Origin: Eledone cirrhosa
Taxonomy: Eukaryota
Length of the DNA stretch: 64,000 bases
Reading direction: 5' to 3'
NCBI GenBank assembly: GCA_964016885.1
Contig: OZ024740.1
Coordinates: 256,370,001-256,434,000 of the forward strand
Shown here: positions 2,582 through 63,712 of the stretch, piece after piece
Layout of the letters: each line of letters begins with the position of its first letter
How positions within the stretch are numbered: the first letter of the stretch is position 1
Program-made: the position numbers and the translations under genes
The notes under the pieces: model-generated
What the model was told of the DNA's origin: nothing
The model's database searches: none
Seen by the model: only the letters and a program-made list of their open reading frames with translations

Positions 2582-4681
2582 ATGGCTACCAAAAAAAAAA
2601 AATTTCATACGTCACTCCCACTCATTCCGTCTTCTTCTTCCTCAATCATCACTACAGGAGAGAGAAGATTGTCTCTCTCCCTCCCTTCTTTAAATGTGTC
2701 TCTCTCCCTACCTTCTCTTTCGCAAGCGACGAAAGAAAAGAAAAGTCTCGTGCAAAGCGTGCAAGGTTTCTCCACGACGACGACGACAGCGACGAAACAG
2801 GTGTGCGGGAAATACGAAAACCCAGTTCATTCGTCTGACGTCAGGAATAATAGCAGTAGCAGCCGTAATAACAACAGCAACAGTGACAATGAAAACAACA
2901 GTAGCAGCCGCAACAGCATCACCAGCAGCATAAACAACAACACCATTAGCAGCAGCAACACCAACAACAACCACAGCAACAGCGGCGGAGGCAGTAGTCG
3001 TAGTACCTGCAGCAACAACAAAAGTACCAGCAGCTCTGACGACAACAACAACAGCAGAGAAAAACCAATCTCATTTGCAGGTATTGCGAAAAACCTGGAA
3101 ACAATCCTCATAACAAATGAGGAATTAGAGGAAGCGAAGAAGATGGTGACAAAGAACGGACACCGAGCAATCTGCAAGGCAGCGAAAAATTTTTTCGAAA
3201 CCCAAGAGCACTGTACGGTCACGTACCGTACAGTAAGTACAAAATCCCGTAGGGTGGAAAGAGCCACAGAGGCCCAAATACAAAAAGCCTTGGGGTCTGT
3301 GTGGCAGAGGAAAACGCACATCACCCGAGGCAAAAAATACGCCACCGTAGACGTACTTTTTGCCACACCCCAGGAGGCAAAGGCCCAATCAGTAGTGACC
3401 CTAAGGAGCGAGGAAATGGTGTTGGTGCCCTCCTACTGCGGGCAAAAAATTGTGAGGGTCAAACTGACCCACGTCCCCCCCGGAATGACCCCTTCTTGGC
3501 TGGCCGCGTCTGTCCTCGTCGGAATCGAGGACAAAACAACTGTACTGCAAGTACAGAAAAAAGTAAGAGAAGATTGGGTCGGCTCCTCCATTGAGATGCT
3601 AATACAAACCAACCAGGAGTGCATCGAAGCTATCCCGGATGTGATAGACTTCGATAACGGCACTCAACTGCCCATAAGTGTTGAGGGCAAACGCCCGAAA
3701 TGCTTTCGCTGTGGATCGAAGACTCACCTCAGGGCCTTCTGCAACGAGAAGACCCTGAGAAAGGAGAAAACCCCCCTCCTCCCGAATCCGGTTCCACGGC
3801 TACCAGCAACAGGACAAGCGGCAACCAGGAACGATAGGTCCGTGGCACCCATACCCACTCCACGGAAATCAAAGACAGCAGCAGCAGTGGAAATATTAAC
3901 AACAACAACAGCAATACCAAATGCAGCTGCAACAGAGACTCCAGTGCAAACATCACCAACAACAACAAGTGAAAGAGTGGAGCTGGTACCCCTCCCCGAC
4001 CTTACAGAATCAGACATGGAGTGTGAGGTGGGAGAGGGATGGCAAAAGGTCTCAAGAAGGCACAAACGCAGAAGCAGCGCATCGTCGCCTTTGAAAAGGG
4101 AGGAAAGAAATGAGAAAAGGGTAAAGTCTACTGCAAAGAGACCCACAGCAGCAACACCACCAACACCATCACCACCCACACCAGCACCACCATCACCACC
4201 GGCGACAACCCCACCGCCAACAACACCTTCAACACCACCACCACAAGCACCAACATCGCAAACACAACAACAAAACACACACACCCAGCAACAACGACAA
4301 GAAAATAGCAGAACCACACCCCACCCCCAGAAAAACAAATGCACGGCAATAAACACACACAACAAGAAACTAATGACTTACATAATTGAACACACAGACA
4401 TTTCACAACAGGACTACATAATACCAGCACCAATCAAAACGCCAACTAACATAAGACTGCTAAAAATAGCACAGAAACAATACACAAACATTAAAACGAA
4501 ATTTCCCAACGCAGTTGGTGATTTCAGGGACCTAGGAGGAACCATTAATCGAAGAGTATATTCAGACATTCTCTTAGAAGAGCCGACGACCAGCCGAAGG
4601 GACGATTCAACGGTCCCTTCACCAGACGATCAAGTGAAAAGGGATGTAAAAACCATCCCTCCTCTACCAAAAATACGGTAA
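2582..4681 (+). CDS. LINE ORF1p (gag-like nucleic-acid-binding protein with CCHC zinc knuckle)
   Basis: First ATG at 2582 (the track start at 2549 is a TTG). CFRCGSKTHLRAFC fits CX2CX4HX4C; Asn/Ser-rich N-terminal and Pro/Thr-rich C-terminal low-complexity regions; homologous ORFs in copies 3, 5 and 6. Confidence 0.9.
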   Translation: MATKKKKFHTSLPLIPSSSSSIITTGERRLSLSLPSLNVSLSLPSLSQATKEKKSLVQSVQGFSTTTTTATKQVCGKYENPVHSSDVRNNSSSSRNNNSNSDNENNSSSRNSITSSINNNTISSSNTNNNHSNSGGGSSRSTCSNNKSTSSSDDNNNSREKPISFAGIAKNLETILITNEELEEAKKMVTKNGHRAICKAAKNFFETQEHCTVTYRTVSTKSRRVERATEAQIQKALGSVWQRKTHITRGKKYATVDVLFATPQEAKAQSVVTLRSEEMVLVPSYCGQKIVRVKLTHVPPGMTPSWLAASVLVGIEDKTTVLQVQKKVREDWVGSSIEMLIQTNQECIEAIPDVIDFDNGTQLPISVEGKRPKCFRCGSKTHLRAFCNEKTLRKEKTPLLPNPVPRLPATGQAATRNDRSVAPIPTPRKSKTAAAVEILTTTTAIPNAAATETPVQTSPTTTSERVELVPLPDLTESDMECEVGEGWQKVSRRHKRRSSASSPLKREERNEKRVKSTAKRPTAATPPTPSPPTPAPPSPPATTPPPTTPSTPPPQAPTSQTQQQNTHTQQQRQENSRTTPHPQKNKCTAINTHNKKLMTYIIEHTDISQQDYIIPAPIKTPTNIRLLKIAQKQYTNIKTKFPNAVGDFRDLGGTINRRVYSDILLEEPTTSRRDDSTVPSPDDQVKRDVKTIPPLPKIR

Positions 4682-4716
4682 GTGGTCTTTCCCATCTTTT
4701 CCACTCTATTTTAAAC

Positions 4717-7700
4717 ATGACCTCACTCAGAATAGGCAGCATAAATGCGCGTGGCTTGGGGTCGTCATGGAAGCAGGGTCACCTGCTCAACGACCTCAGG
4801 TCACTAAACATAGATGTAGTGGCCATCAGCGAGACCAGAATCTCCGAAGCACGGGCCTTCGCACCGATCTTCGGCGGCTACGATGTGTACGCATCTCCCA
4901 GCCGTCCTGGATCCGGTGGAGGAGTTGCTGTACTTTTTCGGAGAGGTTTGGATCTCGCCATACGGGCCATCTTCCTGGACCCAGAGGGTAAGCTGGTGGT
5001 GCTGGACGTGACCAGCGGAGACGGGCAAGCTTTCAGGCTAGTGGCCGTCTATGCCCCGACAGGAGCAGGGCGGCCTGATTTCTTCCGGCGTCTGGAGACC
5101 TTTCTTGGAACGTCCCGCTCTTTAGTGTTAGTGGGCGACTGGAACGGGATCTTAGATGCACGCTGGGACTGTGTGGGATTAGCGGATAGGGGTGGAGGGT
5201 GCAAGAGCCTCACCAACCTGCTCAGGCGTTTTGAACTGTCTGACAGGTACCGATTGGATTTCCCGAATGTGCCAATGTGGACTTGGACAAACCGCATAGG
5301 GTCATCCAGATCATATCTAGATAGAGTATTTTGTAGGGAAATAGATAGGTCTAGCATAGGCTGTCCACAATTCAAGATAGTCAGCTACACGGACCACAAA
5401 TTCGTGATCTGTGTGCTTGACTTAGATAGGCTTCATAGACGAGGACCCGGCTACTGGAAGCTAAACGCGTCCTTACCAGCGCGCAAGGCCTACAGAGACC
5501 GGATTAGCGAACTAGTTAAGCGGGCGTTGACGGGGGCCATCGTCAACAACAAGTGGTGGTTTGCTCTGAAAAGAGCGATTAGAATAGAATCGATTAGGTT
5601 TAGTAAGGCTTTAGCAATAGAGAAAAATAGAGCAGAGGGAGAACTAGTTAGAAAATTAGACGAGGCGCTTAGCAAAGGCATTGCGACCGACGTGCTTGCG
5701 GCGAAATTGGCCCTTGACCAATTCTTCAATGCAAAGCACGAAGGCTGCGTTGTCAGAGCTAGGGTGCGTGCTCTCAGACACGAGGGGACGAAAGCCGTTC
5801 AATGGGCCCGAGTGGCGGAGGCGCGTCGTGGCAACAAAGCCACGATCCGGTCTTTGGTGGACCACGACGGGCGCATGCTACTCGATCCCGGGCAAATGTG
5901 TGAAACTTTTCAGCGACACTTCGCTCAGCTGTTCGGGGGCAGCGGGGGGCCGGGTAGAGGGATGGACTTTAGTGTCTACCTCGACGGGCTGCCGCGGCTC
6001 TCGGCCACTGAGGCGAGGTGTTGCGAAAAGCCGATAACAGCCGCTGAAGTACGGGAGGCAATGACTGGCTGCACAAGGGGTAAATCGCCTGGTTTGGATG
6101 GTCTGCCCTATGAACTTTACGTACAGATGCCAGACTTGTTCGGAGGCCTCTTGGCGGACGTCTACTGCAACTGGCAACAGAACGGGAGAATTCCCAGTTC
6201 TGTGAGCCGAGGAGCGGTGGCACTGCTGAGAAAGGATCCGAACAAGGGGGATAACATAGACAATTTCCGGCCCATAACTCTGCTAAACACAGAGTTTAAG
6301 ATTTTGGCCAAGGTGCTAGCAAAGAGGTTGGCGCTTGTCGTTGGTGGTCTGGTGGGAGAGGCGCAGACATGCGCCATTCCCGACAGATCCATCCACGACA
6401 ACCTCCACCTCATGCGATACATCGTAGAGAGGGTAGCTAGGGAACCTGGCACGGGTGGGTCCTTGATCAATTTAGATCAGTCGAAAGCTTTCGATAGGGT
6501 CGACCATCGTTACCTAGCGGCAGTCCTGAGGGCGGCTGGCTTTGGGCCCGTCTTCAGAGGCTGGATCGCTGCCATGCACAGCGACATCTGCTCTGTGGTG
6601 AGAGTGAACGGTCACCTGTCGGAACCGTTCAACATCATGCGCTCGGTCCGCCAAGGATGTCCCCTCTCGTCCCTCTTGTACGTATTGACTCTCGAGCCAT
6701 TACTGCACAAACTGGAGACGTTGAGGGGAGTCCCGCGCGAACTAGGATGCGGAAGATCCGTGTCAGCATATGCGGACGATGTCACCGTAGTGGTGTCGAA
6801 CGCCAAACACATCGAGGCGATCGGCACTACACTAAGAGAATACGAAGCGGTGACAGGAGCAATGATCAACCAGGAAAAGTCAGTGGGCCTGCAGCTCGGC
6901 ACCTGGAGAGGCAGGTCCATGCCGTCCAACAGCGTCGTCGGGCGCTGGACGGACGGACCGGTTAAATTGCTAGGGGTCTGGTTCGGTCCGGACCTCCAGA
7001 CGGACAAAAACTGGGACGAGGTGACGAGCAGGGTGGCTTCTCTCACCCAGAAATGGGCGGAGAGGAAGCTATCCCTGAAAGGTCGAGCGGAGGTGGCTAA
7101 CGCGTACATCGCGTCTGTCATCTGCTACCGCCTAACCGTCGTACCTTGTCCTAAGCCTCGCCTGACTGCGCTGGAGCGTTTGCTCTTTCGCTTTTTGTGG
7201 AAGGGACGTGCTCCGATGGTCAGGCGGTCCATCTGTTGTCAACACCCGCTACGTGGAGGGCTGGGCATGCCGTGGCTGATGATGCGCAGGCACGCGCTCA
7301 GGCTACGACATCTCCACCTCTTCCTCGACGGTGATCAGGTGTGGTCGCCGTTTGCTAGACGCGTTTTTCCCCAGCTCGTTTCCTTGACGGAGCTGCAGTC
7401 CTGGGTCAAGCGAAGACCGAGAGGGAGCGCCTGGAGACTGGAATGTCTTCAGGCGCTCACAGCCCTCGACCAATCGGGCAATGTGATCGGTGGAAACTCC
7501 ACCTCGGCGTTCTATAGAGGATTAGTGGAGGGGAAGAGCGACGACGTACTTGGGGAAACTCTAGGCGTCGACGAAAATCAACTAGCCAATCTCTTCGGAA
7601 GAACTTTCGGGCCAGGGCCTATGGACAACTTCCAGAAATCTCTGGCCTGGCAGTGCTACCGAGGAGCCTTGCCAGTTCGGGATAAACTCTACAGGCATGG

Positions 7701-8136
7701 AGGTGCCGTCAGCCGGGCATGTCCGAGATGCGCGCAGGGCGACGAAACCGTCCTGCACGCACTCGTCCAGTGTCCGAAAATTGCTGACTTGTGGGTTTAT
7801 GTCGAACACCTGCTGTCGCGTTTAGGACGGATCCAGCTATCATCTGAGTCCATCGTGAGGATTGCCCCGCCCTCCTCCTTTAGCCGGGAAGGGCAGGCAG
7901 TTTTTATCTGTCTGGTGGCCATGGCGAAAGAGATAGTATGGTGGACACGTTTGAAAGGGCTGAAGACGAGCACTTACCTCTTCGGTGATGCTCTGATTGA
8001 CTTTTTCAAATTTCATTTGAAAAGGAAAATCAGAGTAGAGAGGGAAGTGCTCTCTTCCCAGCATTTTGTTGAAAGATGGGTGAGAGAAGCAAGAATGGCC
8101 CGAGTGAATGGGCCGACTCTGAGTATATATCTGTAA
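4717..8136 (+). CDS. LINE ORF2p: APE endonuclease + reverse transcriptase + C-terminal Cys/His finger (L1/Tx1 clade)
   Basis: APE motifs SINARG, ISET, VYAP, GDWN, LDRV, TDH. RT motifs KSPGLDG, FRPITLLN, DQSKAFDRV, VRQGCPLS, YADD. C-terminal CPRC..ETVLHALVQC. Confidence 0.97.
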   Translation: MTSLRIGSINARGLGSSWKQGHLLNDLRSLNIDVVAISETRISEARAFAPIFGGYDVYASPSRPGSGGGVAVLFRRGLDLAIRAIFLDPEGKLVVLDVTSGDGQAFRLVAVYAPTGAGRPDFFRRLETFLGTSRSLVLVGDWNGILDARWDCVGLADRGGGCKSLTNLLRRFELSDRYRLDFPNVPMWTWTNRIGSSRSYLDRVFCREIDRSSIGCPQFKIVSYTDHKFVICVLDLDRLHRRGPGYWKLNASLPARKAYRDRISELVKRALTGAIVNNKWWFALKRAIRIESIRFSKALAIEKNRAEGELVRKLDEALSKGIATDVLAAKLALDQFFNAKHEGCVVRARVRALRHEGTKAVQWARVAEARRGNKATIRSLVDHDGRMLLDPGQMCETFQRHFAQLFGGSGGPGRGMDFSVYLDGLPRLSATEARCCEKPITAAEVREAMTGCTRGKSPGLDGLPYELYVQMPDLFGGLLADVYCNWQQNGRIPSSVSRGAVALLRKDPNKGDNIDNFRPITLLNTEFKILAKVLAKRLALVVGGLVGEAQTCAIPDRSIHDNLHLMRYIVERVAREPGTGGSLINLDQSKAFDRVDHRYLAAVLRAAGFGPVFRGWIAAMHSDICSVVRVNGHLSEPFNIMRSVRQGCPLSSLLYVLTLEPLLHKLETLRGVPRELGCGRSVSAYADDVTVVVSNAKHIEAIGTTLREYEAVTGAMINQEKSVGLQLGTWRGRSMPSNSVVGRWTDGPVKLLGVWFGPDLQTDKNWDEVTSRVASLTQKWAERKLSLKGRAEVANAYIASVICYRLTVVPCPKPRLTALERLLFRFLWKGRAPMVRRSICCQHPLRGGLGMPWLMMRRHALRLRHLHLFLDGDQVWSPFARRVFPQLVSLTELQSWVKRRPRGSAWRLECLQALTALDQSGNVIGGNSTSAFYRGLVEGKSDDVLGETLGVDENQLANLFGRTFGPGPMDNFQKSLAWQCYRGALPVRDKLYRHGGAVSRACPRCAQGDETVLHALVQCPKIADLWVYVEHLLSRLGRIQLSSESIVRIAPPSSFSREGQAVFICLVAMAKEIVWWTRLKGLKTSTYLFGDALIDFFKFHLKRKIRVEREVLSSQHFVERWVREARMARVNGPTLSIYL

Positions 8137-8396
8137 ACTAAAGGTGGAAAACTGGGAGAGGGCACTTGCCTTGGTGGTCAGGGTCATTGTGGCTTTTTAC
8201 TGGGCTTTCTCCACAAATGTCCCTCCGAAGTCTCCCCCCTATTGGGGAATTTTTCATTGTTATTTTCATTGTTATTTTTGTTACATCCTCTGTTTTTGTT
8301 TTTTTACACGCAGAAATGCCCATTTGTACCGTCCTGCATTGTCCTGCACTGTCCTTAATGTCTACTTTATGTAAACCCTTGTGGTTAATAAAGAAA

Positions 8397-8700
<304 letters not shown>

Positions 8701-11700
8701 GGAAGGTGAAGCAACTCTTCTTATCGGCTCCAGTTTTTTTCAACAGTATTCATCGATTTCAACCGTTCTTAACCTTTTATTCAAGTTTTAAACTTGATAA
8801 AGGTTTAGAAGAAGTGACCCACCTAATACAGGGGTTCACTTGTAAATAATACGGCACCCCTTTACGGGGTGTCGTATTATGTAAAAATTATTTGAAAGAC
8901 ATTTTTTCTTTCAAAAATGGATAACACAAAAAAGAGAGAGAGCGCTGTCAGACACACAGAGAGAGGGAGACTTTGTCAACATATCAACAAGACAGCGTTC
9001 CAGCGGAGGTAAATATAAAGAAAATATTACGAAGGAAAAGAGGAACAATATCATTTTTAATCATATTGTTACAGATTTAAAATTACCAAATATTTCTAAA
9101 ACAAACAACACCAACAATAACACCAACAACAACACCAACAACAACACCAACAATAACACCAACAAAAACACCATCAATAACAACAGCAACAACAAAAATA
9201 ACAGCGGTAAGGTCGAGAACGACAATAACAATGACAATAATAACAGCCACAACAACAATAATAGTAGGAACAGTATCAACAAAAACAACAATAATAACAA
9301 CAGCCACAATAACAGTAACAACAGCAACAGTATCAACGAAAACAACAACAATGACAACAATAACAGCAACAACAGTATCAACGAAAATAACAACAATGAC
9401 AACAATAACAGCAACAACAGTACCAACGAAAACATCAACAATGACATCGATACCTGTAACAGCGATCTCAGCACCAACAGCAAGACCAGTAGCGGCAGCA
9501 ATAGTGGTGCCGCTGAAAAAGGGACCACTTCTTTTACAGGTGTGGTCAGAAATATCGAGACAGTGTTAGTCACAGAGGAGGAGATGGCAGTCGCAAGGGA
9601 CATGGTGACAAGAAACGCCAATAGAGTTTCCCTGAAACCTCCACCCGATTTTTTCAAGGACCAGCAGTTACGGACGGTAACTTACGGCAATGTAAACAAA
9701 ATATCACGTCCAGTGGAGAGAGCCACGGAGGCTCAAATCCAAAAGGCCTTGGCGTGCGTCTGGGTGCGCAAAACCCACATCACCTGAGGAAAAAAATATG
9801 CCACGGTAGATGCACTTTTTGGCACCCCACAGGAGGCGAAGTCTCACTCTTAGGTAACCCTAAAGAGTGAGGAGATAGTTTTGGTGCCCTCCTACTGTGG
9901 GCAAAAAATTGTGAGGGTCAACGTGACCCAGGTCCCACCCGACGTGGCTATACCTTGACTGGCCGCGTCTGTCCTTGCTGGAATCGAGGACAGAACGACC
10001 ATGCTGCAAGTAGAGAAAATAGGGAGAGAGAACTGGTCAGGTATAGGCATGCAAATACTAATACAAACTGACCGGGAGTGTATCGAGGTTATCCCCGATA
10101 TCATAGACCTCAGGGAAGGACTCCAACTCCCTATGAGCGTGGAAGGAAGGCGCCCAAAATGCTATCTCTGTGGAACAAAGGGTCACCTCAGTGTCTTTTG
10201 TCCGCAGAAGACAGCGAAGAAGAAGGCCCCCCTCCTTACTATGCCTGGTCTGCTGCTACCAAGAGCAGGGCAGGCAACAAACGCAGAAGACTCTTCCACT
10301 GTGAGTAGGAGGGCAACGTCCGTGGCACCCATACAAAGGCCACGGACAACTAAAACAGCAGCAGCAGTGGCGGCAACACCAATAGCTACATTTGCAGTAT
10401 CTGCAGCAACAACAAAATAGCCGCAAAGGACTCCACTACCACCAAAGGCTGTAGAGCACATACCCCTCCCAGATGCCACGGAATCCGACATGGAGTCTGA
10501 GGCGGGAGTGAAGTGGCAAACGGTCTGCGACAAAAAAGAAAAAAGAAAAAAGAAAAAAGAAAAAAGAAAAAAGAAAAAAGAAAAAAGAAAAAAAGAAAAA
10601 AGAAAAAAGAAAAAAGAAAAAACCCCTTAGCGAAGGCAAACAAAGAGGGGTAAAGGCTGCAAGGTAACTCGCAGCAACGCCACTACCATCACCACCAACA
10701 ACCACCACCACAAACGTAGAATAGGCAGCATAAATGTACGTGGCCTGGGGTCATCTTGGAAGCAGGGCCACCTGCTTAACGATCTCAGGTCACTAAACAT
10801 AGATGTGGTGGCCATCAGCGAGACCAGAATTTCCGAAGCACGAGACTTCGCACCGACCCTCGGCGGTTACGATGTATACGCATCTCCCAGCCGCCTGGGA
10901 GCGGGGGCCTGAGTTGCTGTGCTTTTTCGGAGAGGCTTGGATCTTGCCATACGGGCCATTTTCCTGGACCTAGAAGGTAAGTCGGTTGTACCGGATGTGA
11001 CAGGCAGCGAAGGCAATGCTTTCAGGTTAGTAGCCGTCTACTACGTCCCAACAGGGGTAGGACGGCCAGATTTCTTCAGGCGTCTAGAGACCTTTCTTGG
11101 AACGTCCCGCTCTTTAGTATTAGTGGGTGACTGGAACGGTATCTTAGATGCACGTTGGGATTATGTGGGGAAGTAAATAATGGAGGAGGATGTAAAAGCC
11201 TCACCAACCTGCTCAGACGTTTTCAAATGTCTGACAGGTATCAACTGGATTATCCGAATGTGCCAATGTGGAAATGGGCAAACCGCAACGGGTCATCCAG
11301 ATCGTTTCTAGATAGGGTATTGTGTAGGGAAACAGATAAGGCTAGCGTAGGTTGTCCACAATTTAAAGTAGTCGGCTACTCGGACCACATATTTGTGATC
11401 TGTGATGTCGACTTAGATAGATTTCATAGGCAAGGATCTGGTTACTGGAAGCTGAACGCGTCTTTCCCGGCAAGCAAAGCTTACAGACACCGGATAAGTG
11501 AATTAGTTGAGCGTGCGTTGACGGGTGCGATCGTAAACAGCAGGTGATGGTTTACGCTGAAAAGGGCAATTAGAATAGAATCAATAAGGTTTAACAAAGG
11601 AGTAAAGATAGAGGTAAATAGATTAGAAAGCTAGAAGAGGCGTTTAGGACAGGCATCGCAACCGACGTGCTTGCGGCGAGATTGGCACTCGACCAATTCT

Positions 11701-14316: not shown

Positions 14317-14322
14317 CTCTCT

Positions 14323-14393
14323 AAATAAAGTACCAGTAATACACTGGGATAATTGCTGGCCTTGTGCCAAAAGTAGAAACAATTATTATTATT
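14323..14393 (+). mobile_element. 5'-truncated SINE with 18-bp target-site duplication
   Basis: Matches the 3' part of the 8499 SINE. ATTATTATTATTCTCTCT occurs at 14305-14322 and 14382-14399. Confidence 0.85.
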
Positions 14394-16139: not shown

Positions 16140-19100
16140 GGCGACCTACGTAGTAAATCGTATCATTGTGAGCTCGGCAAAGGTTTGTTATTTTCAGTTG
16201 TTCAAAATTGCCATTCATGGAAAATGTTATTGTTAATTGTATATAAGTGCACATACATTGTTATCTGAAAAGGACACCCAAAAAGATTGGGGCCTTGAGC
16301 CCAAAATTTAAACTTTTATAATTATCAAACAAAAAATTTTTCTTTGAAACATCATGGCTGACTCAGAGTCACTCCTTTCTCACAAACTAAAACCTCACAC
16401 CGACACCACCATTGTAAATATTACTACGTTTGCAACACTAAAAAAAATATAAGCAGTAGCAATATTTTAAATTTGTCTCAGGCAGACATTCATTTCCCGC
16501 CATTACCAATGACTGCAGGTGTTAAAGCCGCCACCACCACCAGCGCGATAACCGCCACCCGCACCACCACCACGACAACAGAAACAAAAGAAAAAAATAA
16601 ATTAACTCGTGATATCGAAATGAATTCAACCAAAATGAACTCTTCCACACCGAACACCACTGACGCCACCACCACCACAACTGAAGCTAAAATTAATAAT
16701 AACAAAAATAACGATAACAACAACAGCAACAATGACATTAAGAAAACCACCCTGAGTTTTGCCAGAGTAGCAAAACAGTGCGAAGCGAAGCATTTCAGGT
16801 AACTCAGGAGGGATTAGAAGAAGCCAAAAAAATGGTAAAGAAAGATGGGTACAGGGTCAGCCCCCCCCCCCACACACACCTAATAAAATGGAGCATCAGC
16901 GCCTATGCACCGTGTCTTATCGAACAATTAATATAAAATCGCGCCCAGTGGAACGGGCATCCGAGTCCCAAATCCCAAAAGCTTTGGGACATGTGTGGGC
17001 AAAAAGACCCCACATCAGACGTGGGCAGAAGTATGGAACCGTGGACGTGTTCTTTGAAACACCACAGGAGGCTAGAGAACACTCCATGGCCCCATTAAGA
17101 AGTGACGGCTTCACACTCGTCCCAAGCTATTGTGGCCAGAGACTCGTAAAGATCAGGGTCACCCACGTACCACCGGCCATCGAAATTTCCTGGTTAATAG
17201 CTGCCGTCCTCGCCGGCATCGAAGCCAACACCATCATAATCGAAATAGCGAAAGAAAAGCTGGAGAACTGGTCCGGATCTGGGATGGAGCTCCTGATCCA
17301 AGCGGACCAAAAAAGCATTGAGGAGATCCCAGAGGTAATAGACCTCACTGACGGCAGCCACCTCACCGTAACTGTCGAGAGCAGAAGGCCTAGGTGTGTC
17401 GTTTGTGGTGAAGGAACACACATAAGGGCTTTCTGCTCTGAGGCTAAAAGGTTGAAGCCACCTCTCCTACCCATCCCAGTGACTCAACCATCAACACCAC
17501 CAGCAGCAGAGATGGCAGCAACAACTGTAGCAGCAACAACAGAAGCAAATGTAACAGCAACAATCCCAGCAACAGTAGCAAAACCAACACCACCACCACC
17601 CAACGCGCCAGAACTAGCACCAGCCCCTACACCATCCACCACGCCACAACCAAAACTAACGCCTGTGGAAGATTTTCCACTCCCCGGCCTATCACAACTG
17701 GGGACAGATTGTGACGACGAGGAGTGGGAAACGGTATCAGGAAAAAAGAAAAAAAGAAACTAAAAAAGAAAGAAATTCTCTTCCTCCCTTTCCAAAAACA
17801 AAATACAGAGGGAAAAATATAAACTATCAAACAAAAAAGTTAGGACAGATATGCCACCATCCACACCAACCCCATCACGCCAAACACCAACACCATCACC
17901 ATCATTAACCCCAACAACACCATCACCAACACCAAAAAAGCGAAACAGAAAGAAACCCATAACAAACGCAAACAAAACAAAACAGCCAAAACGATACACA
18001 CTACACAGCATTAAATTTGAACAACAACCAATTATTACACTACATCCAACACAACACCAGCATCACAGAAAAAGACTACACAACAACCCAAAAGTTCACA
18101 CCATCTCCACACATACAAATCACTCGCATCACACAGAAAACGTACATGGCACTAAAACAAAAATTCCCCAAAGACATCGGAGACTTCCGACAAGCACTCT
18201 CCAGGAGGATTTATAAGGACATCCTTCCTGGGGAGGCCACAAGCAGTGAAAAGGATGGAGAAACCGTCTTTCCTCTACGAGAAGAAAGGTAAGTGGTCTT
18301 TCCCATCTTTTCCACTCCATTTCAACATGACCTCACTCAGAATAGGCAGCATAAATGCGCGTGGCTTGGGGTCGTCATGGAAACAGGGCCACCTGCTCAA
18401 CGAACTCAGGTCACTAAACATAAATGTAGTGGCCATCAACGAGACCAGAATCTCCGAAGCACGGGCCTTCGCACAGATCTTCGGCGGCTACGATGTGTAC
18501 GCATCTCCCAGCCGTCCGGGATCGGGGGGAGGAGTTGATGTGCTTTTTCGGAGATGTTTGGATCTCGCCATATGAGCCATCTTCCTAGACCCAGAAGGTA
18601 AGTTGGTGCTGCTGGACGTGACCAGCGGAGACGGGCAAGCTTTCAGGCTAGTGGCCGTCTATGCCCCGACAGGAGCAGGGCGGCCTGATTTCTTCCGGCG
18701 TCTGGAGACCTTTCTTGGAACGTCCCGCTCTTTAGTGTTAGTGGGCGACTGGAACGGGATCTTAGATGCACGCTGGGACTGTGTGGGGCTAGTGGGTAGG
18801 GGAGGAGGGTGCAATAGTCTCACCAACCTGCTCATGCGTTTTGAACTGTCTGACAGGTACCGATTGGATTTCCCGAATGTGCCAATGTGGACTTGGACAA
18901 ATCGCATAGGGTCATCCAGATCATATCTAGATAGAGTATTTTGTAGGGAAATAGATAGGTCTAGCATAGGCTGTCCACAATTCAAGATAGTCAGCTACAC
19001 GGACCACAAATTCGTGATCTGTGTGCTTGACTTAGATAGGCTTCATAGACGAGACCCCGGCTACTGGAAGCTAAACGCGTCATTGCCAGCGCGCAAGGCC

Positions 19101-21933: not shown

Positions 21934-24900
21934 TTTTTTTCAACGTTTTACCTCATTTTCAACCGTTCTTAACCTTTTAAAGTTTTTAAATTTGATAAAA
22001 GTTTAGAAGAAGTGCCCACCTAATACAGGGGTTCACTCGTAAATAATACGGCACCCCTTTACGGGGTGTCGTATTTGTGTAAAAATATTTAAAAAAAAAA
22101 AATGTTCAACATGGATAACACAAGAAAGAGAGAGAGCGCTGTCAGACAGCACACAGAGAGAGGGAGACTTTATCAGCATGTCAACAAGACAGCGTTTTCG
22201 CGGAGGTAAATATAAACGAAAATATTACAAAGGAAAAGAGGATAGTTGCAGATTTAAAATTACCAAATATTTCTAACACAAACAACACCAACAACAACAC
22301 CAACAACACCACCATCAATAACAACAGCAACAACAAAAATAACAGCGGTAAAGTCGAGAACAACAATAACAAAAATAACAGCGGTAAGGTCGAGAACGAC
22401 AATAAAAATGACAATAACAACAGCCACAACAACAATAATAGTAGGAACAGTATCAACAAAAACAACAATAATAACAACAGCCACAATAACAGTAACAACA
22501 GCAACAACCACAACAGTACCAACGAAAACATCAACAATGACATCGATACCTGTAACAGCGATCGCTGCACCACCAGCAAGACCAGTAGCAGCTTTAGCGG
22601 CAGCAATGGTGGTGCTGCTGAAAAAGGGACCACTTCTTTTGCAGGTGTCGCCCGAAATATCTAAACAGTGTTAGTCACAGAGGAAGAGATGGCAGTTGCA
22701 AGGGCTATGGCGACAAGAAGCGCCAATAGAGTCTCCCTGAAACCTCCACCCGATTTTTTCAAGGACCAGCAGCTACGGACGGTGACTTACTGCACCGTAA
22801 GCAAGATGTCACATCGGGTGGAGAGATCCACGGAGGCTCAAATCCGAAAGGCCTTGGGGTGCGTCTGGGCACGCAAAATCCACATCACCCGAGGCAGAAA
22901 GTACGCCGCAGTAGACGTACTTTTCGCCACCCACCAAGAAGCGAAGTCTCACTCCTTGGAAACCCTAAAGAGTGAGTAGATAATCTTTGTGCCCTCCTTC
23001 AGCGAGCAGAACATTGTGAGTCTGCCACAAAAAACAAAAAAGGAAAAACCCCTTAGCTTCACCCTCCAAAAGCGAAAGCACACAAACAGTGGTAAAGGCA
23101 GCAAGGAAACTTGCAGCAACACCAGCACCATCACCATCACCACCACAAGCACCACCGCCAACAACAACCACACCACCACCAGCATCACCAAAAACACCAA
23201 CAACGCAAACAAAACAAAACACACACACCAAAGAGCAATAAGAAGAAAACAGCAATAAAATCACCCCTCCCCCCAAAACATGGCAAAAACAGCCATAAAC
23301 ATGGCAAAAAAAAGAACTCATACAATATATAAAGCAGCACACAGACATCACAAAAAAAAAACTACTACACCCCACCAACTCTCCCGACAAACATAAGCAT
23401 CATTGAAATCTCAATAGAACAGTACACACTTTTAAAACAAAAATTCCCCAACGAAGTTGGAGACTTCAGAGCGTCGGTTACCAAGAGGATATACTCTGAT
23501 ATCCTCTTGGAAACATCCATGACCAGCCAAAGGGATGGTTCTACTGTCCCTTCACCACACGATCAAGGTAAGTGACTCTTTCTCACTTGCCCCGTTTCTC
23601 ATCCAACATGGGCGTACTCAGAATATGCACTATAAATGCACGTGGCCTGGGGTCATCTTGGAAGCGGGGTCACCTGCTCAACGACCTCAGTTCACTAAAT
23701 ATAGATATCGTGGCCATCAACGAGACCAGAATCTCCGAAGTACAAGCTTTCGCACCGATCTTCGGCGGCTACGATGTATACGCATCTCCCAGCCGTCCAG
23801 GATCGGGGGGAGGGGTTGCCGTCATTTTTCGGAGAGGCTTGGATCTCGCCATACGGGCCATCTTCCTAGACCCAGAAGGTAAATCGGCGGTGCTGGACGT
23901 GACCGGCAGCGAAGGCAATGCTTTCAGGCTAGTAGCCGTCTACGCCCCAACAGTGGCAGGGCGGCCAGATTTCTTCAGACGTCTAGAAAGCTTTCTTGGA
24001 ACGTCCCGCTCTTTAGTGTTAGTGGGCGACTGGAACGGTATCTTGGATGCACGCTGGGATTTTGTGGGGCTAGTGGATAGGGGAGGAGGGTGCAAGAGCC
24101 TTACCAACCTGCTCAGACGTTTTGAACTGTCTGACAGGTATCGACTGGATCACCCGAATGTGCCAATGTGGACATGGACAAACCGCATCGGGTCATCCAG
24201 ATAGTATCTCGATAGGGTTTTCTGCAGAGAACTAGATAAGGCAAGTATAAGTTGTCCACAATTTAAAATAGTCGACTACACACACCACAGATTTGTGATC
24301 TGTGAGATCGACATAGACAGACTTCATAGACAAGGGCCCGGTTACTGGAAGATGAACGTGTCTTTCCCGGCGCGCAAAGCCTACAGAGACCGGATTAGCG
24401 TATTAGTTAAGCGGGCGGTGACGGGAGAGGTCGTCAACAACAGGTGGTGGTTAGCCCTGAAAAGGGCAATTAAAGTAGAGTCGATTAGGTTTAGCAAAGG
24501 ACTAGTGATAGAGGTAAATAGAGTAGAGGGAGAGCTAGTCAGAAAGCTAGAAGAAGCGTTTAGGACAGGCATCGCCACCGACGTGCTTGCGGCGAGATTG
24601 GCACTCGACCAATTCTTCAACGTAAAACACGTAGACTGCGTTGTCAGAGCTAGAGCGCGTGCTCTGAAACACGAGGGGACAAAAGCCGTCCAATGGGCTC
24701 GGGTGGCAGAGGCGCGACGTGGCAACAAAGCAACAATTCGGTCTTTGTCTGAACAAAACGGGTGCGTGTTGCTCGAACCCGAGCAAATGTGTGAAGCTTT
24801 CAGCAGCACTTTGCTGAACTGTTCGGGAGCAGCGGCGGGCCGGAACGGGGCATGGACTTCAGTGCATACTTCGACGGACTGCCTCGGCTCTCGACGACCG

Positions 24901-27147: not shown

Positions 27148-30100
27148 GGTCTAAGCGGACGTACTTTTCTCGCTCAGAGTCAGTCGCTTTATTTGCCTGT
27201 TAAAATTATTTGTTTTTAAATATTTCTTGTTGTGTAAAGGATATAACCCCTTAGACTTTGCCCCGTGAAAGGGAAAGTATAATATTTGAACTTTATTTTT
27301 ACATGTTAAAAAATTTACGAAGAAAAATAAACATGGCCGAGCCCCCCCCCCCCCCCCCCCGCGATATATCGGCTGTCGTGCGACAACGACGTAGAAGTTG
27401 AGAGCAGCGCTACAGCGAAATTAACACGCATAGATAACACAAACACCACCACAAACAAGGTAAACAAAGACACCAATGATCCCAATAAGAACTCTAATTT
27501 TGAAATAAATGACAGTAACAGCGACAACGAAAATACAGATAACAAAAAAAAAAATAACAAATACAACAACAATATCAACACCACTAACATGAAAACAAAT
27601 ATCGACAACACCAACAGCAACAATACCAACTGCAACGAGAACAACGGTGGCAACAAAGACAACAATGATAACAGCGACAGCGCTAACAACAACACCAACA
27701 AGAACAACGACAACAACACCCCCAACGAAAACTAGAAGAACACTTTCGCTGTGGCAGCAGCAAAAAAGAGGCCATGCTTCAACATGGACCTCTCAAACAA
27801 AGATGAAAAGTTGGCCCAGGCATGGAAGCTCATCAAGCAAGAGCAAACTTGGGCCAACTTATCAGACCCAAGAATGTGAAGACAATCCCGGACCACATCG
27901 CCTTCAGAATGGGACGGTCATTCACATTATGACCGAAGGCAAAAGGCCGCAGTGTTTTGTTTGTGGGGAAAAACCCATTTGCGAGCCTTCTGCCCTCAAC
28001 TGCTGAAAGAGGCAAGGGGTCGAAAGGCTCCACTACTGCCGACTCCGGGGTGAGGACCGCAACCAACACCAACACCGGCAAAACCACCAACAACAACACC
28101 AATAGAAAGACCACCACCAACATTGACCACCCAGTGGGGAAACGAGGAAAGCTGTCAAATTCCCCCCCCCCCCAAATACACGTACCAATAAAACCATAAA
28201 CATACATACAGACACACTTACAGACACAGACCCCTCATCTACCAGTAGTGAAGATGAGGGAAAACCCAAATCCCCCAAAATACAAAAAAGTAAACACAAA
28301 AAGAAAAAAAAAACTCAACAAAGCACAAAAGCACCCACAATAAAAAACGCAGAAACCACCCACGCAAACATCTCTCCAATAACACCAACATCAACACCAC
28401 CATCACCATCACCAGAATCCCCCAAACGCAAACAACCGAAACAGAGGCAAGAACAAATATACACATAAACATCTGAAACCACAGACACCACACTCACAAC
28501 AAACACAGATACAACCGAAACAACACTACCCAAACCATCACCACTACAGCCACGCAAACAAATAAAATCACACCAACAAAACATAGAAAACGTCGCGCTC
28601 GTCAGGAGGGCCAACAAGGAACTGATGGCACTCGTAGCACGAAGTGAAAATATACAAAAAGAGGTGAAATTTTTAAATCGAGCACATTTCGCGTGCCGGA
28701 AGATTTGGTTCTGGTGCGAATGTCGCTCGACATATTCAAAGAAATACGAGACAGCTTTCCTCGGGACGTGGGAACCCCGAATCTAAAACCCACTTCAAAA
28801 CTTTTAAAGGGGTTCTCAAAAGAAACCCCACTAAATATGGAGGTCGAACAACCCGACCTTCACAAGAGCCCGGAAGGTAAGTAAACCTTCCTCTCTCTCT
28901 GTTTAACCTGCCAACATGGCCGTATTAAACAGCCTGCTCAACGACCTCAGATCTATAGAAATGGATGTAATTGCAGTCAGCGAGACCAGGATTTCTGACA
29001 CGCGCGCACTAGCACCCATTTTCGACGACTATCAGATCTTTGCAGCTGTTAGCCGGCCGGGAATGGGAAGCGGGGTGGCAGTGCTGTTTAGGAAAGGCCT
29101 GGATCTCGAGGTAAGGTCGATCTTATGGGACCCGGACGGGAAGTTGGTCGTCCTGGACGTGAACAATAATGAACCTCTCGCCCTTTACTGTTAGCGAGGG
29201 ACTGGAACGGCATCTTAGACGCACGCTGGGATTGTGTGGGAGTATCCGATAGGAACGGGGGATGCAAAAGCCTCAAGAACCTGATCAGCCAGTTCCAACT
29301 GTCTGACAGGTACCGACTAGATTTCCCTAATGCGCCAGTGTGGACCTGGGCTAACCGCATAGGGTCATCTAGATCGTATATCGACAGGATATTCATTAGG
29401 AAAATAGACAGAAATAGTGTAAGCTGTCCACGTTTTGAAACGGTCACCTATTCAGATCACCAGTTTGTGATCTGTATGGTCGACCTAGATAAGACGCGTA
29501 GGTTAGGACCTGGTTACTAGAAGCTAAACATGTCATTTCCGGCACGTAAGGCTTACAGGGACCAGGTCAACAATTTAGTTAAGAAAAAGTTGACAGGAGG
29601 AATCGTCAACAATAGATGGTGGGGGGCTCTCAAAAGAGAGATTAGAGTAATGTCGATAGAGATTAGCAAAGAAGTAGCATTAGAGAAAAATAGAAAGGAG
29701 GGTAGTTGGTAGATAAGTTAGACGAGGCTATTGGTAGTGGCATTGCAACTGACGTGCTAGCGGCGAGAATGGCATTAGACCATTTCTTCAATGCGAAAAC
29801 GAAGGTTGCATTGTCAGAGCTAAGGCGCGTGCTCTGAGAAACGAGGGAACCAAAGCTGTTCGATGGGCCCGCGTGGCAGAGGCGCAGCGTGGTAATAAAA
29901 CCACGATTCGGTCTTTGACGGACCGAGACGGGCACAAGCTGAGCGATTCCGAGAGGATGTGTGAGGCCTTTCGCCAACTTTTTGCTCGGTTGTTCGGGGG
30001 AAGTGGCGGGTCAGAGGTGGTGGCGGACTTCAGTCCTTACCTCGATGGCTTGCCGCAACTCTCGACGGCTGACGCTGGGCGCTGCGAAAGGCCAATTACT

Positions 30101-33039: not shown

Positions 33040-34295
33040 TTTAACCTGTTCCATGTCTGTGGATCTCTAAATTCAGTTTTCCTAAAGAACGTGCTATGAA
33101 GGGATTTTTAATGAAGGTTGCTCTTCCTCCTTGCTATTATTTCCTTCTTGGACATCCCCTGGTCTATTGTATTCTCCTTCAATTTTCTACGAAAATTAAG
33201 ATGGCGTACAACAATATTGCGTCTGCTAAACATAATGGCGGGCTGTCCATAGAGGGGAACACCCAACATTCTGAAAACAATAACAGCAGCAGCAGCAATA
33301 GCAAAAAGAGCAGTAGCAGCAGCAGCAGTGACCAAAGTTCATATAGTGAAAACAAAGTGGACTTTCCAGCTCTGCCAATGTTTACCACGCTGAATGCCAT
33401 CACACCTACCACAACGACCGTAGGCATGGTCAACACCACAGACAATAGCAACCCCACCACCACCACGCTACCACCACAACGGAAACAACGGAAACTAAAA
33501 ACGAAATGAAAACACACGGCAGCAACAACATAAATGATAACAAGACCACCATCACCATTACCACCACCACAACAACAACTGAAACAAAAAATAATAACAA
33601 GAACAACAACAGCAACAATGAGAATAACAACAACACCAACACCAGCGTAAAACCTAATATGTCTTTTGCGAAAGCGGTGAACAAGAACGAAACGATTGAG
33701 GTAAGCCAGGGACAACTTGGGCCAGGCGAATGGTGAAGAAAAATGGCTACAGGGTCAGCTTCACTCCTCCCTCAAACACTTTGGAACATCGGCGGCTATC
33801 TACGGTATCATATAATTAGCACAAAAACACGCCGAGCTGCCGCACGGTAATCGTTGGAGGTAGAAAGCCAAGGTGCATCGTTTCTGGCGATGGAACCCAC
33901 TTAAAGGCCTTCTGCCCCCAGGGGATGGCTAGAAAATTAAAGCAACCTCTCCTGCCTACCCCACTGTCTCAACCAGAAAAAAAACAACAGCAACAACTGT
34001 AACAGCCACGATAGCAAGATCACCACCAACAAAGCGCCAGAAGTAGCATTAGTCCCCACACTATCCCCCACGTCACAACCAACATTAACGCCTATGGAGG
34101 ATATTCCATTCCCCGACCTCTCACAACTGGAGATGGATTGCGACGAGGAGGAGGAGGGGGGGGGGGGCTGTATTTATCTTTTTTCATTTTTTTGTTACAT
34201 ATTTTTTTTTAATATGTATGTTTACACGCAGAATGCCTATTTGTACCTTCCTGTACCGTCCTGTACTGTCCTTAATATTATACTTTATGTCAACT
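33040..34295 (+). mobile_element. Tx1 remnant: copy-5-type ORF1 pieces joined to a Tx1 3' UTR, no ORF2
   Basis: SFAKAV, EHRRLSTVSY and EDIPFPDLSQLEMDCDEEE match copy 5 ORF1; 34210-34292 matches the 3' UTR (TTTACACGCAG...TACTTTATGTCA). Confidence 0.75.
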
Positions 34296-34755
34296 TTCTT
34301 GCTCGAGGTCTACCTCTGAGTCTCCGGCCGGTTGGTTTTGCCTGTAAAATCTGTCCAGCGGTTCTTTACTGAGACATTCTAACCATATGCCCATAGTATC
34401 GGAGCTGTGATCTCTCAATACGGAGAAGTAACGGCTCTATCAGGAGTGACTCTCTGGTCTCTGAACTATGCACCTTTTCGACTAAAGTTACTCCAAAGAC
34501 CCTTTCGAGGAACCTCATTTCGGCCGCTTGTATTTATAACCGTATTATTTCGGTCATTACTCCAGATACATGACACTAAGTAAGTGTTCTCAGGAATACC
34601 AGGAAGACAGCGAGTTTGGCTTTTAGACCTACATGCCTTCTGATTACCGAATGCTGAAGCTGGCGCATTACTGCATCAGCTTTTGCAATTCTTGCACTTA
34701 ATTCAGCCTCCTGCCTTCCATCACTCGTGAATACGGTCCTGAGATACTTGAACTA
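34296..34755 (-). mobile_element. RTE-clade LINE 3' fragment
   Basis: Minus strand reads YLRTVFTSDG..RIAKA..IQAAEMRFL..SQLRYYGHMVRM..GRPR, typical of the RTE C-terminus. Confidence 0.75.
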
Positions 34756-35946: not shown

Positions 35947-36042
35947 TGTTTCTACTCTTTTGGCACAAGGCCAGAAATAATCCAGTGTATTACTGGCACT
36001 TTATTTTATCGACCCCGTAAGGATGAAAGGCAAAGTTAACCT
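35946..36042 (-). mobile_element. SINE 3' half flanked by (AAT)n
   Basis: Reverse complement of the 8595-8690 region. Confidence 0.85.
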
Positions 36043-36091
<49 letters not shown>

Positions 36092-53527: not shown

Positions 53528-53676
53528 ACGCGTCATAATGACGTAATGCAGACATACAGGCATACAGACTATATTATAAAGGCGCAACGTTATATCAATG
53601 TATCTATCTAAAAAGAGTAAGTTCATCATTGTCTTATTTCTATTTTAATTTTTTTCAAATATCAATGTGTCGAATT

Positions 53677-56600
53677 AACAACAACAACAACAATCACAAT
53701 ACCCAAAACAACAACAACAACAGCAATCACAATACCCAAAACAACAACAACAACAGCAATCACAATAACCACAACAACAACAACAGCAATCACAATACCC
53801 ACAACAACAACAACAACAACAACAGCAATCACAATACCCACAACAACAACAACAACAACAATCACAATACCCACAACAACAACAACAACAGCAATCACAA
53901 TACCCACAACAACAACAACAACAGCAATCACAATACCCACAACAACAACAACAACAGCAATCACAATACCCACAACAACAACAACAACAGCAATCACAAT
54001 ACCCACAACAACAACAACAACAGCAATCACAATACCCACAACAACAACAACAACAGCAATCACAATACCCACAACAACAACAACAACAGCAATCACAATA
54101 CCCACAACAACAACAACAACAGCAATCACAATACCCACAACAACAACAACAACAGCAATCACAATACCCACAACAACAACAACAACAGCAATCACAATAC
54201 CCACAACAACAACAACAACAGCAATCACAATACCCACAACAACAACAACAACAGCAATCACAATACCCACAACAACAACAACAGCAGCAATCACAATACC
54301 CACAACAACAACAACAGCAATCACAATACCCACAACAACAACAACAGCAGCAATCACAATACCCACAACAACAACAACAACAGCAATCACAATACCCACA
54401 ACAACAACAACAGCAGCAATCACAATACCCACAACAACAACAACAGCAATCACAATACCCACAACAACAACAACAGCAGCAATCACAATACCCACAACAA
54501 CAACAACAACAGCAATCACAATACCCACAACAACAACAACAGCAGCAATCACAATACCCACAACAACAACAACAGCAATCACAATACCCACAACAACAAC
54601 AACAGCAGCAATCACAATACCCACAACAACAACAACAACAGCAATCACAATACCCACAACAACAACAACAACAGCAATCACAATACCCACAACAACAACA
54701 ACAACAGCAATCACAATACCCACAACAACAACAACAGCAGCAATCACAATACCCACAACAACAACAACAACAGCAATCACAATACCCACAACAACAACAA
54801 CAGCAGCAATCACAATACCCACAACAACAACAACAGCAATCACAATACCCACAACAACAACAACAACAGCAATCACAATACCCACAACAACAACAACAAC
54901 AGCAATCACAATACCCACAACAACAACAACAGCAGCAATCACAATACCCACAACAACAACAACAACAGCAATCACAATACCCACAACAACAACAACAGCA
55001 GCAATCACAATACCCACAACAACAACAACAACAACAATCACAATACCCACAACAACAACAACAACAGCAATCACAATACCCACAACAACAACAACAGCAG
55101 CAATCACAATACCCACAACAACAACAACAACAACAATCACAATACCCACAACAACAACAACAACAGCAATCACAATACCCACAACAACAACAACAACAAC
55201 AATCACAATACCCACAACAACAACAACAACAGCAATCACAATACCCACAACAACAACAACAGCAGCAATCACAATACCCACAACAACAACAACAACAACA
55301 ATCACAATACCCACAACAACAACAACAACAGCAATCACAATACCCACAACAACAACAACAACAGCAATCACAATACCCACAACAACAACAACAGCAGCAA
55401 TCACAATACCCACAACAACAACAACAACAGCAATCACAATACCCACAACAACAACAACAACAGCAATCACAATACCCACAACAACAACAACAACAGCAAT
55501 CACAATACCCACAACAACAACAACAGCAGCAATCACAATACCCACAACAACAACAACAACAGCAATCACAATACCCACAACAACAACAACAGCAGCAATC
55601 ACAATACCCACAACAACAACAACAACAACAATCACAATACCCACAACAACAACAACAACAGCAATCACAATACCCACAACAACAACAACAGCAGCAATCA
55701 CAATACCCACAACAACAACAACAGCAATCACAATACCCACAACAACAACAACAGCAGCAATCACAATACCCACAACAACAACAACAACAGCAATCACAAT
55801 ACCCACAACAACAACAACAGCAGCAATCACAATACCCACAACAACAACAACAGCAATCACAATACCCACAACAACAACAACAGCAGCAATCACAATACCC
55901 ACAACAACAACAACAACAGCAATCACAATACCCACAACAACAACAACAACAACAGCAATCACAATACCCACAACAACAACAACAACAGCAATCACAATAC
56001 CCACAACAACAACAACAGCAATCACAATACCCACAACAACAACAACAACAGCAATCACAATACCCACAACAACAACAACAGCAGCAATCACAATACCCAC
56101 AACAACAACAACAGCAATCACAATACCCACAACAACAACAACAGCAATCACAATACCCACAACAACAACAACAACAGCAATCACAATACCCACAACAACA
56201 ACAACAGCAATCACAATACCCACAACAACAACAACAACAGCAATCACAATACCCACAACAACAACAACAGCAGCAATCACAATACCCACAACAACAACAA
56301 CAGCAATCACAATACCCACAACAACAACAACAACAGCAATCACAATACCCACAACAACAACAACAACAGCAATCACAATACCCACAACAACAACAACAAC
56401 GGCAATCACAATACCCACAACAACAACAACAACAGCAATCACAATACCCACAACAACAACAACAGCAATCACAATACCCACAACAACAACAACAACAGCA
56501 ATCACAATACCCACAACAACAACAACAACGGCAATCACAATACCCACAACAACAACAACAACAGCAATCACAATACCCACAACAACAACAACAACAGCAA

Positions 56601-61725: not shown

Positions 61726-61839
61726 ATAACCACCATAACACCAATCTAATTTTGGGGTTGATCTCTATGGAACGAAATTTAGTTTTTTTGATGACAACGA
61801 CTGTAATGATGATGAGGGAGTGGTAATAGTTGAGGTGTC

Positions 61840-63405: not shown

Positions 63406-63509
63406 TTCGAGGACGATGATAATAGCTGTGGTGATGGTGATGGCAGAGATGATGAGAATGAGGATGGTGATGGTGAGGAGGATGATTATGATTATGAAGA
63501 TAATCGATA

Positions 63510-63636
63510 GTAAATAATATCAACCAACAATAATAATAGTGATAACAACAACAATAACTGAAACAATAACGATAACAACATCATTGGTAACAGCAATAAT
63601 CCTAATAATGATAACAACAACAACTATAACAGCAAC

Positions 63637-63692
<56 letters not shown>

Positions 63693-63712
63693 CTATAGCA
63701 ACAACAACAACA
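63510..63712. repeat. AAC/AAT low-complexity tract with pure (AAT)n
   Basis: Direct reading; (AAT)n ~63639-63690. Confidence 0.9.

Follow-up and report, generated by a model that had tools for sequence, protein, structure and literature searches.

A conserved donor-like motif, probably recognized by U1, at the ORF1 stop of L1/Tx1-like LINEs from Eledone cirrhosa and a second host

We analyzed 64,000 nucleotides of Eledone cirrhosa DNA (NCBI GenBank assembly GCA_964016885.1, contig OZ024740.1, positions 256,370,001 to 256,434,000 of the forward strand), referred to throughout as the window, whose first 34 kb hold a head-to-tail cluster of about eight copies of a long interspersed element (LINE). 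All of these copies, and the LINE features given below, lie on the + strand, and ATT tails and short repeats separate one copy from the next. Our subject is the boundary between these elements' two open reading frames (ORFs), where a motif resembling a splice donor recurs. Copy 2 is intact, with both ORFs open. Its ORF1 (2582..4681) encodes 699 aa with a central RNA-binding-like region, a CCHC knuckle (CX2CX4HX4C) and a Pro/Thr-rich linker; hmmscan gives no Pfam match for it, and its look-alikes in Atlas are zf-CCHC and ZCCHC3 RNA-binding domains (0.90-0.93). ORF2 (4717..8136, 1139 aa), likewise intact, combines an apurinic/apyrimidinic (APE) endonuclease, a reverse transcriptase (RT) and a C-terminal zinc-binding region (PF03372, PF00078 and PF13966), and its best solved relative is human L1 ORF2p (E 7e-53), with the likeness to the human L1 endonuclease starting at residue 5. 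The spacer between the ORFs (4682..4716) is pyrimidine rich (24/30 pyrimidines) and has no AG upstream of the ORF2 ATG, which is itself conserved together with its context.

An AATAAA signal and an (ATT)33 tail (8387..8498) close copy 2, and AATAAA with ATT tails is found at five of the six listed 3' ends of window copies. Copy 2 is flanked by (TAT)13 and (ATT)33, although within one window tails and targets cannot be told apart; LINE 5' ends come after ATT runs, and such a run may be the target. Copy 4 is 5' truncated, beginning within the RT. By their domains, tails and clustering the window elements are L1/Tx1-like, showing the ORF2 domain set, a separate upstream nucleic acid-binding ORF1, repeat-tailed 3' ends and 5'-truncated copies. 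Copy 5 is 95% identical to copy 2, and the stretches from donor to 3' end of three window subfamilies are 72-81% identical between subfamilies. The window ORF1 and ORF2 are absent as exact sequences from the protein collection, in which an Argonauta protein is the best representative match.

At the ORF1 end of copy 2, the sequence ACG/GTAAGT (4675..4683; the slash marks the putative cut, with GT at 4678, phase 2) overlaps the ORF1 stop, TAA at 4679-4681, and agrees with the consensus 5' splice site. The ORF2 ATG follows at 4717 and the first downstream AG at 4729-4730. Preceded by AAG, the same hexamer stands at the ORF1 ends of copy 5 (18286..18294, GT at 18289, phase 2), copy 6 (23565..23573, GT at 23568, phase 1, ORF1 ending Q-G-K-stop) and copy 7 (28874..28882, GT at 28877, phase 1, ORF1 ending E-G-K-stop). 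An earlier sequence-only reading of this DNA had placed all four donors, with these coordinates and phases, correctly. Only copies 2 and 5 use the TAA within the motif to end ORF1; in copies 6 and 7 it is out of frame.

Over the whole window GGTAAGT is not enriched, with 10 matches against 7.7 expected and 25 of 100 shuffles reaching 10. It exceeds chance by its position at the ORF1/ORF2 boundary and not by its count: it lies 38-40 nt upstream of the ORF2 ATG in all four intact junctions, which represent three subfamilies, where the background chance per 60-nt stretch is ~0.13%. When copies 2, 6 and 7 and a relative from a second host described below (L100) are anchored on the GT, identity is 30% at -30..-4, 83% at -3..-1 and 33% at +7..+30, the 100% at +1..+6 being given by construction. 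The sequence-only reading had proposed comparing subfamilies for both GTAAGT and intron phase; the motif, including its -3..-1 bases, proves conserved, whereas the phase (2, 2, 1 and 1) does not.

Variation within a subfamily was viewed in 7,292 contigs from four runs of unrecorded kind, covering 4300-5300. In the largest run, positions 4668, 4670, 4673 and 4676 differ in 74, 47, 98 and 42% of depth, while no position in 4677-4706 figures among 40 of 261 variant rows. This low variation means that, within the subfamily, stability extends to the first part of the spacer and is not confined to the donor. As a control, a donor-like GGTAAG formed by Gly-Lys codons within ORF2 (4985..4993) reads as a full GTAAGT only in copies 3 and 5 and is degenerate in copies 2 and 7. 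Within ORF2, Gly-Lys codons can thus generate the motif, which decays there through silent changes.

Scanning with an ORF2 alignment located tandem arrays of full-length relatives on contigs assigned to a bacterial metagenome-assembled genome (MAG), contigs that are evidently mis-binned DNA of a eukaryotic host; an initial metagenome scan and a viral scan gave no relatives. The ORF2 of this second host is 41% identical to that of copy 2, and its ORF1 is homologous to that of copy 2 (23% over 189 aa). Window copies and second-host relatives form one clade (10 of 90 rows, SH-aLRT 92) in a quick tree whose base is poorly resolved, which was built without copies 6 and 7 and four loci with short RT segments and whose rows are unnamed loci, with no named Tx1 reference.

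The second-host loci cover 50 distinct ORF1/ORF2 junctions, the genome search having listed 72 endonuclease matches. In 48 of the 50, AAG/GTAAGT immediately follows the ORF1 stop, with the ORF2 ATG 13 nt farther on, so that here the motif comes after the stop and is noncoding. The main family carries GTRAGT at the end of ORF2 as well (45/45), either 15 nt after the stop or overlapping it, and this second motif varies solely between A and G at +3 amid variable flanks. Its TAA is the actual stop in L089 and L106, and the divergent L116 family has CAG/GTAAGT 41 nt past the ORF2 stop. More distant L1/Tx1 loci supply a baseline: GTRAGT is absent from the 60 nt upstream of ORF2 in all 40 loci whose match extends to the start of ORF2 (L120 and 39 of 80 metagenome loci; no ATG was located in 4), and it follows the ORF2 stop in none of the 23 with a complete ORF2.

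The arrays themselves, on contigs C3-C19 of the GTDB bacterial MAG G001 (L081-L155), are long head-to-tail runs of intact LINEs of several subfamilies, some 5' truncated, and all units finish at the same sequence, like a target-specific or telomere-type element. The 5'-truncated units indicate that the arrays arose by retrotransposition; the 3.1-kb units of contig C9, considered as spliced copies, are such truncated units. L1/Tx1-like ORF2s on other GTDB MAG contigs (L120, L121, L123 and L124) are probably more eukaryotic contamination.

Judged from sequence, GTAAGT at the ORF1/ORF2 boundary is probably a conserved, U1-recognized site. Pairing of the motif with U1 is likely, as the motif is kept where its TAA is no stop and varies only as donors may. 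Stop-codon context cannot explain it, since copies 6 and 7 do not read the TAA in frame and in the second host it is noncoding. Of the earlier suggestion that splicing or U1 binding acts at this boundary, what stands is a conserved and probable U1 site; what does not is the form proposed for it, a micro-intron of 52-53 nt that would fuse the two ORFs.

That micro-intron is reproduced in copy 2, where cutting 4678-4730 (53 nt) joins ORF1 and ORF2 in frame: the junction is phase 2 and the frame runs 1135 codons into ORF2, for 1833 aa in total. Copy 5 has the same phase-2 layout, with the AG extending to 18340 (52 nt), and meets a decay stop after 78 codons. In copy 6 the first AG gives 54 nt in phase 1 and a stop after 4 codons, and because the segment just before its donor recurs at equal length within the duplicated ORF1 end of copy 2, phase 1 is unlikely to be private decay of copy 6. 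The proposed acceptor AG (4729..4730) forms the first two bases of the ORF2 Arg5 codon and is weak and not conserved as YAG. Of the 263 AGs that follow the copy 2 donor, 39 outscore it on an acceptor score of our own making, and TTAAG stands in its place in another family, which 21 contigs show as a loose end (agreement 0.69). In second-host relatives, whose donor lies so close to the ATG, the first AG is only 33 or 45 nt from the donor, which makes the micro-intron impossible there. We find neither a conserved YAG acceptor with an adjacent pyrimidine tract nor a conserved fusion phase, and a fusion micro-intron is not supported. A length of 53 nt alone does not exclude an intron; a threshold of 65 nt is given for human introns, and an exception of 56 nt is on record (PMC8363638), and literature listings yielded no lower limit of octopus intron length.

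Genomic copies lacking exactly this intron, which the sequence-only reading had suggested looking for, did not come to light. All four intact junctions of the window retain the spacer, the 15 best-supported of 100 contig joints include no 4677-to-4731 joint (weakest depth 11.1 against ~110,000 summed), and no intron-less indel is among 12 of 14 indels in the contigs, which leaves room for rare copies. Long contigs of three runs span the donor unspliced. A joint to a distant acceptor could appear in 4300-5300 only as a loose end, and no loose end at 4677 is among 17 of 537. Nor is an ORF1 N-terminal extension evident among nine ORF2 protein matches, or a fused or C-terminally extended ORF1 among longer or near-length proteins, both of these last being weak negatives.

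Two window copies were considered as spliced copies and rejected. Copy 3 has an internal deletion (10700..10730) that joins the ORF1 linker to the ORF2 Arg5 codon, but the AG is kept, out of the ORF1 frame, and no GT exists at the place equivalent in copy 6; the surrounding region (10532-10730) also holds an (AAAAAAG)13 expansion. In copy 8 (33200-34310), which has no ORF2, a G run links a piece of decayed ORF1 to a T-rich 3' end, and the junction, not at the donor, marks a deletion. Copy 7 has lost the start of ORF2 right after codon 5.

If the donor acts in splicing, its partner would probably lie farther away, and the second host offers a candidate. The local surroundings of its ORF1-end donor lack a usable acceptor, and a pyrimidine tract with TAG stands in the 3' untranslated region (UTR), 237-263 nt after the ORF2-end donor (144 nt in L116) and 178-251 nt upstream of AATAAA (178-209 nt in the main family). 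In L094 this TAG is the top-scoring AG of 4.2 kb. The best-scoring acceptor candidate of copy 2 is also in the 3' UTR, a T tract ending in CAG (8293..8313, CAG at 8311-8313), and splicing the copy 2 donor to it would add 20 codons to ORF1, with a stop ahead of AATAAA. As a universal acceptor of the window families this CAG was rejected, being present in only three of seven copies. In another subfamily, seen as a loose end before 4714 in run X2 (4 contigs, agreement 0.72), a pyrimidine-rich spacer carries CAG a few bases before the ORF2 ATG, which could serve as acceptor for an upstream donor.

The 3' UTR also contains a covarying multi-stem RNA structure at its start (8158..8247 in copy 2, with homologues in copies 1, 3, 4, 5, 6 and 7), between the ORF2 stop and the T tract. 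Across the seven window 3' UTRs, 8 of 21 pairs are changed on both sides, a level reached in 0 of 500 shuffles that do not control for kinship. We regard it as a candidate RT-recognition element. The consensus fold of the second-host 3' UTRs has an invariant 11-bp stem, with double changes in 2 of 45 pairs. Searches of Rfam matched neither the window nor any of four second-host loci.

Our favored reading, to which we assign a probability of roughly 0.4, is that the conserved donor pairs with U1 and splices a share of transcripts past ORF2, yielding an ORF1-only mRNA. On some transcripts the ORF1-end donor would join a distant acceptor and ORF2 would be skipped. Unspliced RNA would be the template for retrotransposition, and genomic copies would accordingly keep the motif unspliced, while the spliced RNA may supply excess ORF1 protein. 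The spliced RNA would not be retrotransposed because it would make no RT in cis and would lose the structured 3' UTR element; the skipping of this covarying structure may explain the lack of spliced copies. With donors at both stops and an acceptor in the 3' UTR, as in the second host, splicing could produce, as alternatives, an ORF1-only or a two-ORF message that escapes nonsense-mediated decay. The pairing with U1, the splicing itself and the acceptor used in the window families are what we infer here.

Several features speak for the ORF1-only mRNA. The conserved island coincides with the -3..+6 donor window between flanks at random level, in four families. Every donor lies no more than 41 nt from a stop, and exon junctions so placed escape nonsense-mediated decay by the 50-55 nt rule; donors near stops are what would be expected if junctions must avoid this decay. 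Any phase would be tolerated if the donor's job is to end ORF1. Also in its favor are the two donors and the 3' UTR acceptor candidate of the second host, the lack of both donors in the more distant loci, the persistence of the motif where its TAA is no stop, and the precedent of spliced RNAs in long terminal repeat elements. More tentatively still, we suggest that an invertebrate L1/Tx1-like lineage may run a programme like that of retroviruses or copia elements, in which donors at the ORF1 and ORF2 stops would be joined to a 3' UTR acceptor to give subgenomic mRNAs and only the unspliced RNA, with its structured RT-recognition element, would be retrotransposed.

A number of observations weigh against the ORF1-only mRNA. 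Neither a spliced read nor a spliced cDNA came to light, the runs listed for 4300-5200 including none of RNA. On the acceptor side, the 3' UTR CAG of copies 1, 2 and 8 is absent in copies 3, 5, 6 and 7, and the window families share no acceptor, although copy 5 is so close to copy 2. Conservation of the TAG acceptor within the second-host main family is weak evidence, as the 3' UTRs there are 82% alike. Sequence downstream of the TAG is still preceded by the tract, and thus unspliced, at 40 of 40 places, so that no acceptor place in the second host represents a spliced genomic copy. If the ORF2-end donor were spliced, the product would code for RT, and cis preference should then seed spliced copies. 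On the donor side, the ORF2-end donor was not found in copies 1, 2, 3, 5 and 6, a weaker match in copy 7 being the sole window case. The two second-host junctions of 50 without an ORF1-end donor belong to the L116 family, which falls in the same clade, and convergence could have produced the ORF1-end donors in the two hosts, given a quick tree with so weak a base. Human L1, too, has conserved functional splice sites and mostly evades splicing (PMC5860796).

Of the alternatives, the one that fares best, doubtful as we find it, is that U1 binds without productive splicing, the sites affecting transcription, nuclear handling or poly(A) choice of an unspliced bicistronic RNA. The sites would then adjoin the stops as the first noncoding places available. 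Donors that are conserved where acceptors are not, and genomic copies that are unspliced without exception, are readily accommodated, as is the ORF2-end donor of the second host, which lies ~430-470 nt upstream of a first AATAAA in elements that end near a later one. Harder to accommodate are the 3.4 kb of ORF2 beyond the ORF1-end donor, which in copy 2, L100 and L116 are free of both AATAAA and ATTAAA and hence offer little to mask, and the strong acceptor-like site in the second-host main family and L116.

Somewhat less plausible is that the motif is kept for a role outside splicing, such as a termination/reinitiation context, stops in several frames or protein binding, or is partly convergent. 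ORF2 would then be translated from unspliced RNA by termination-reinitiation, the way mammalian L1 ORF2 is made, or from a spacer resembling an internal ribosome entry site (IRES). TAA or TGA followed by G is a strong stop context, and GTAAG and GTGAG contain just this; copies 2 and 5 moreover use the TAA of the motif as a real stop, as do L089 and L106 at their ORF2 ends. Gly-Lys codons yield the same motif within ORF2, and a pyrimidine tract whose distance from the ATG is fixed would suit a translation signal, mouse L1 having IRESs upstream of both ORFs (PMC3592465). Set against this, the motif stays whole in places where the ORF does not stop at its TAA (copies 6 and 7, the second-host junction and the L116 3' UTR), -2A/-1G and +5G/+6T are kept with only A/G variation at +3, and the coding-made control site is degenerate in two of the four copies read.

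Considerably less probable is an off switch, in which a local splice of 52-56 nt removes the ORF2 start codon and gives ORF1 a few more residues in most subfamilies. All four window junctions do have GT, a pyrimidine tract and no AG before the Arg5 codon, and human 56-nt introns exist (PMC8363638). RNA without RT would also be expected to leave no intron-less copies in phase-1 families. The tract, however, stops ~20 nt short of the AG, which scores low and is AAG in one family; in the second host the distance is 33 nt, or else 45 nt with GAG at its end, which puts the scheme out of reach there; and copies 2 and 5 would fuse the ORFs instead of silencing ORF2. Finally, the ORF1-ORF2 fusion protein that the sequence-only reading had supplying RT is very improbable and, as a lineage-wide mechanism, largely refuted: it is in frame in copies 2 and 5 and would retain ORF2 from residue 5, where the human L1 likeness begins, but the frame is wrong for it in copies 6 and 7, the second host precludes it, the ORF2 ATG is conserved with its context, the protein searches, weak as they are, show no such product, and cis preference (PMC5860796) means that a fused RNA making RT should seed the intron-less copies that neither the window nor the best joints contain.

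Other features of the window deserve mention. The ORF1 end of copy 2 (4588-4677) consists of two related segments of ~45 nt in tandem, one like the copy 6 end and one like the copy 5 end, which suggests out-of-register recombination between subfamilies. Short-repeat pieces with ATT tails lie between LINE copies at 8499-8700, 14320-14390 and 35960-36045, a repeat that we take to be the common octopus tRNA-derived short interspersed element. From 53540 to 63700 the window holds ~10 kb of strongly skewed simple-repeat arrays, with stop-free frames of up to 2735 codons and a strand switch near 61,800. Outside the window, an Octopus sinensis gene model, the tectonic-3-like P0009, contains a piece 64% identical to copy 2 ORF2; its residues 41-101 come from the LINE endonuclease and end near the internal Gly-Lys donor-like site, possibly an exonization or an annotation artifact. 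Annotators should be aware that gene models of the host can be captured by donors derived from this LINE family.

LINEs are usually viewed as bicistronic RNAs that go unspliced, any splicing being accidental or part of host defense. A donor kept across ORF2s only 41% identical suggests that this lineage uses U1 or the spliceosome on purpose, the simplest use being to set the ratio of ORF1 to ORF2 protein and to keep message and template apart. A U1 site present at the ORF1 stop throughout the lineage would be a new form of LINE anatomy. Literature listings and abstract openings, a body of text outside subscription journals, Repbase and supplements, mentioned nowhere that Tx1-like LINEs conserve a donor where ORF1 stops.

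HAL1 (half-L1) elements are ORF1-only. They are shortened L1 derivatives (PMC8535693), and copy 8, an ORF1 piece with a 3' end, is similar to that extent; unlike a spliced copy, it is joined off the donor, by deletion. The L1-Tx1 elements Kibi, Koshi and Tx1 share with the window LINEs two ORFs, APE, RT and a zinc-binding tail, a CCHC motif in ORF1 and, probably, head-to-tail clustering at microsatellites (PMC4494074, PMC13282606), and 13 recently active L1-Tx1 families are listed for Octopus vulgaris (PMC13282606). They differ in that the excerpts of these papers mention no donor at the ORF1 stop, in keeping with its absence from the 40 distant loci. Penelope-like elements resemble the window LINEs in that copies keep spliceosomal signals through retrotransposition, but they have another RT class and endonuclease, and their intron retention is ascribed to the replication mechanism (PMC3846280).

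Human L1, with its spliced SpIREs, is alike in having conserved functional splice sites within a LINE most of whose transcripts are unspliced. There, however, the sites lie in the 5' UTR and at the ORF1 start, are called detrimental and account for ~2% spliced genomic copies (PMC5860796), whereas in the window LINEs the donor sits where ORF1 stops and no spliced copies came to light. The working parallel for an ORF1-only mRNA is found in the Ty1/copia elements EVADE and BARE1. These are long terminal repeat elements with one Gag-Pol frame and proven splicing, unlike the bicistronic LINEs of the window, for which we infer it, and a candidate for the downstream acceptor that such a system uses is present in the second host, while the window copies share none. 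The donor of EVADE and BARE1 near the end of the structural ORF gives a spliced short-Gag RNA while full-length RNA serves as template (PMC12786077), and in the window LINEs, too, the donor stands at the end of the structural ORF.

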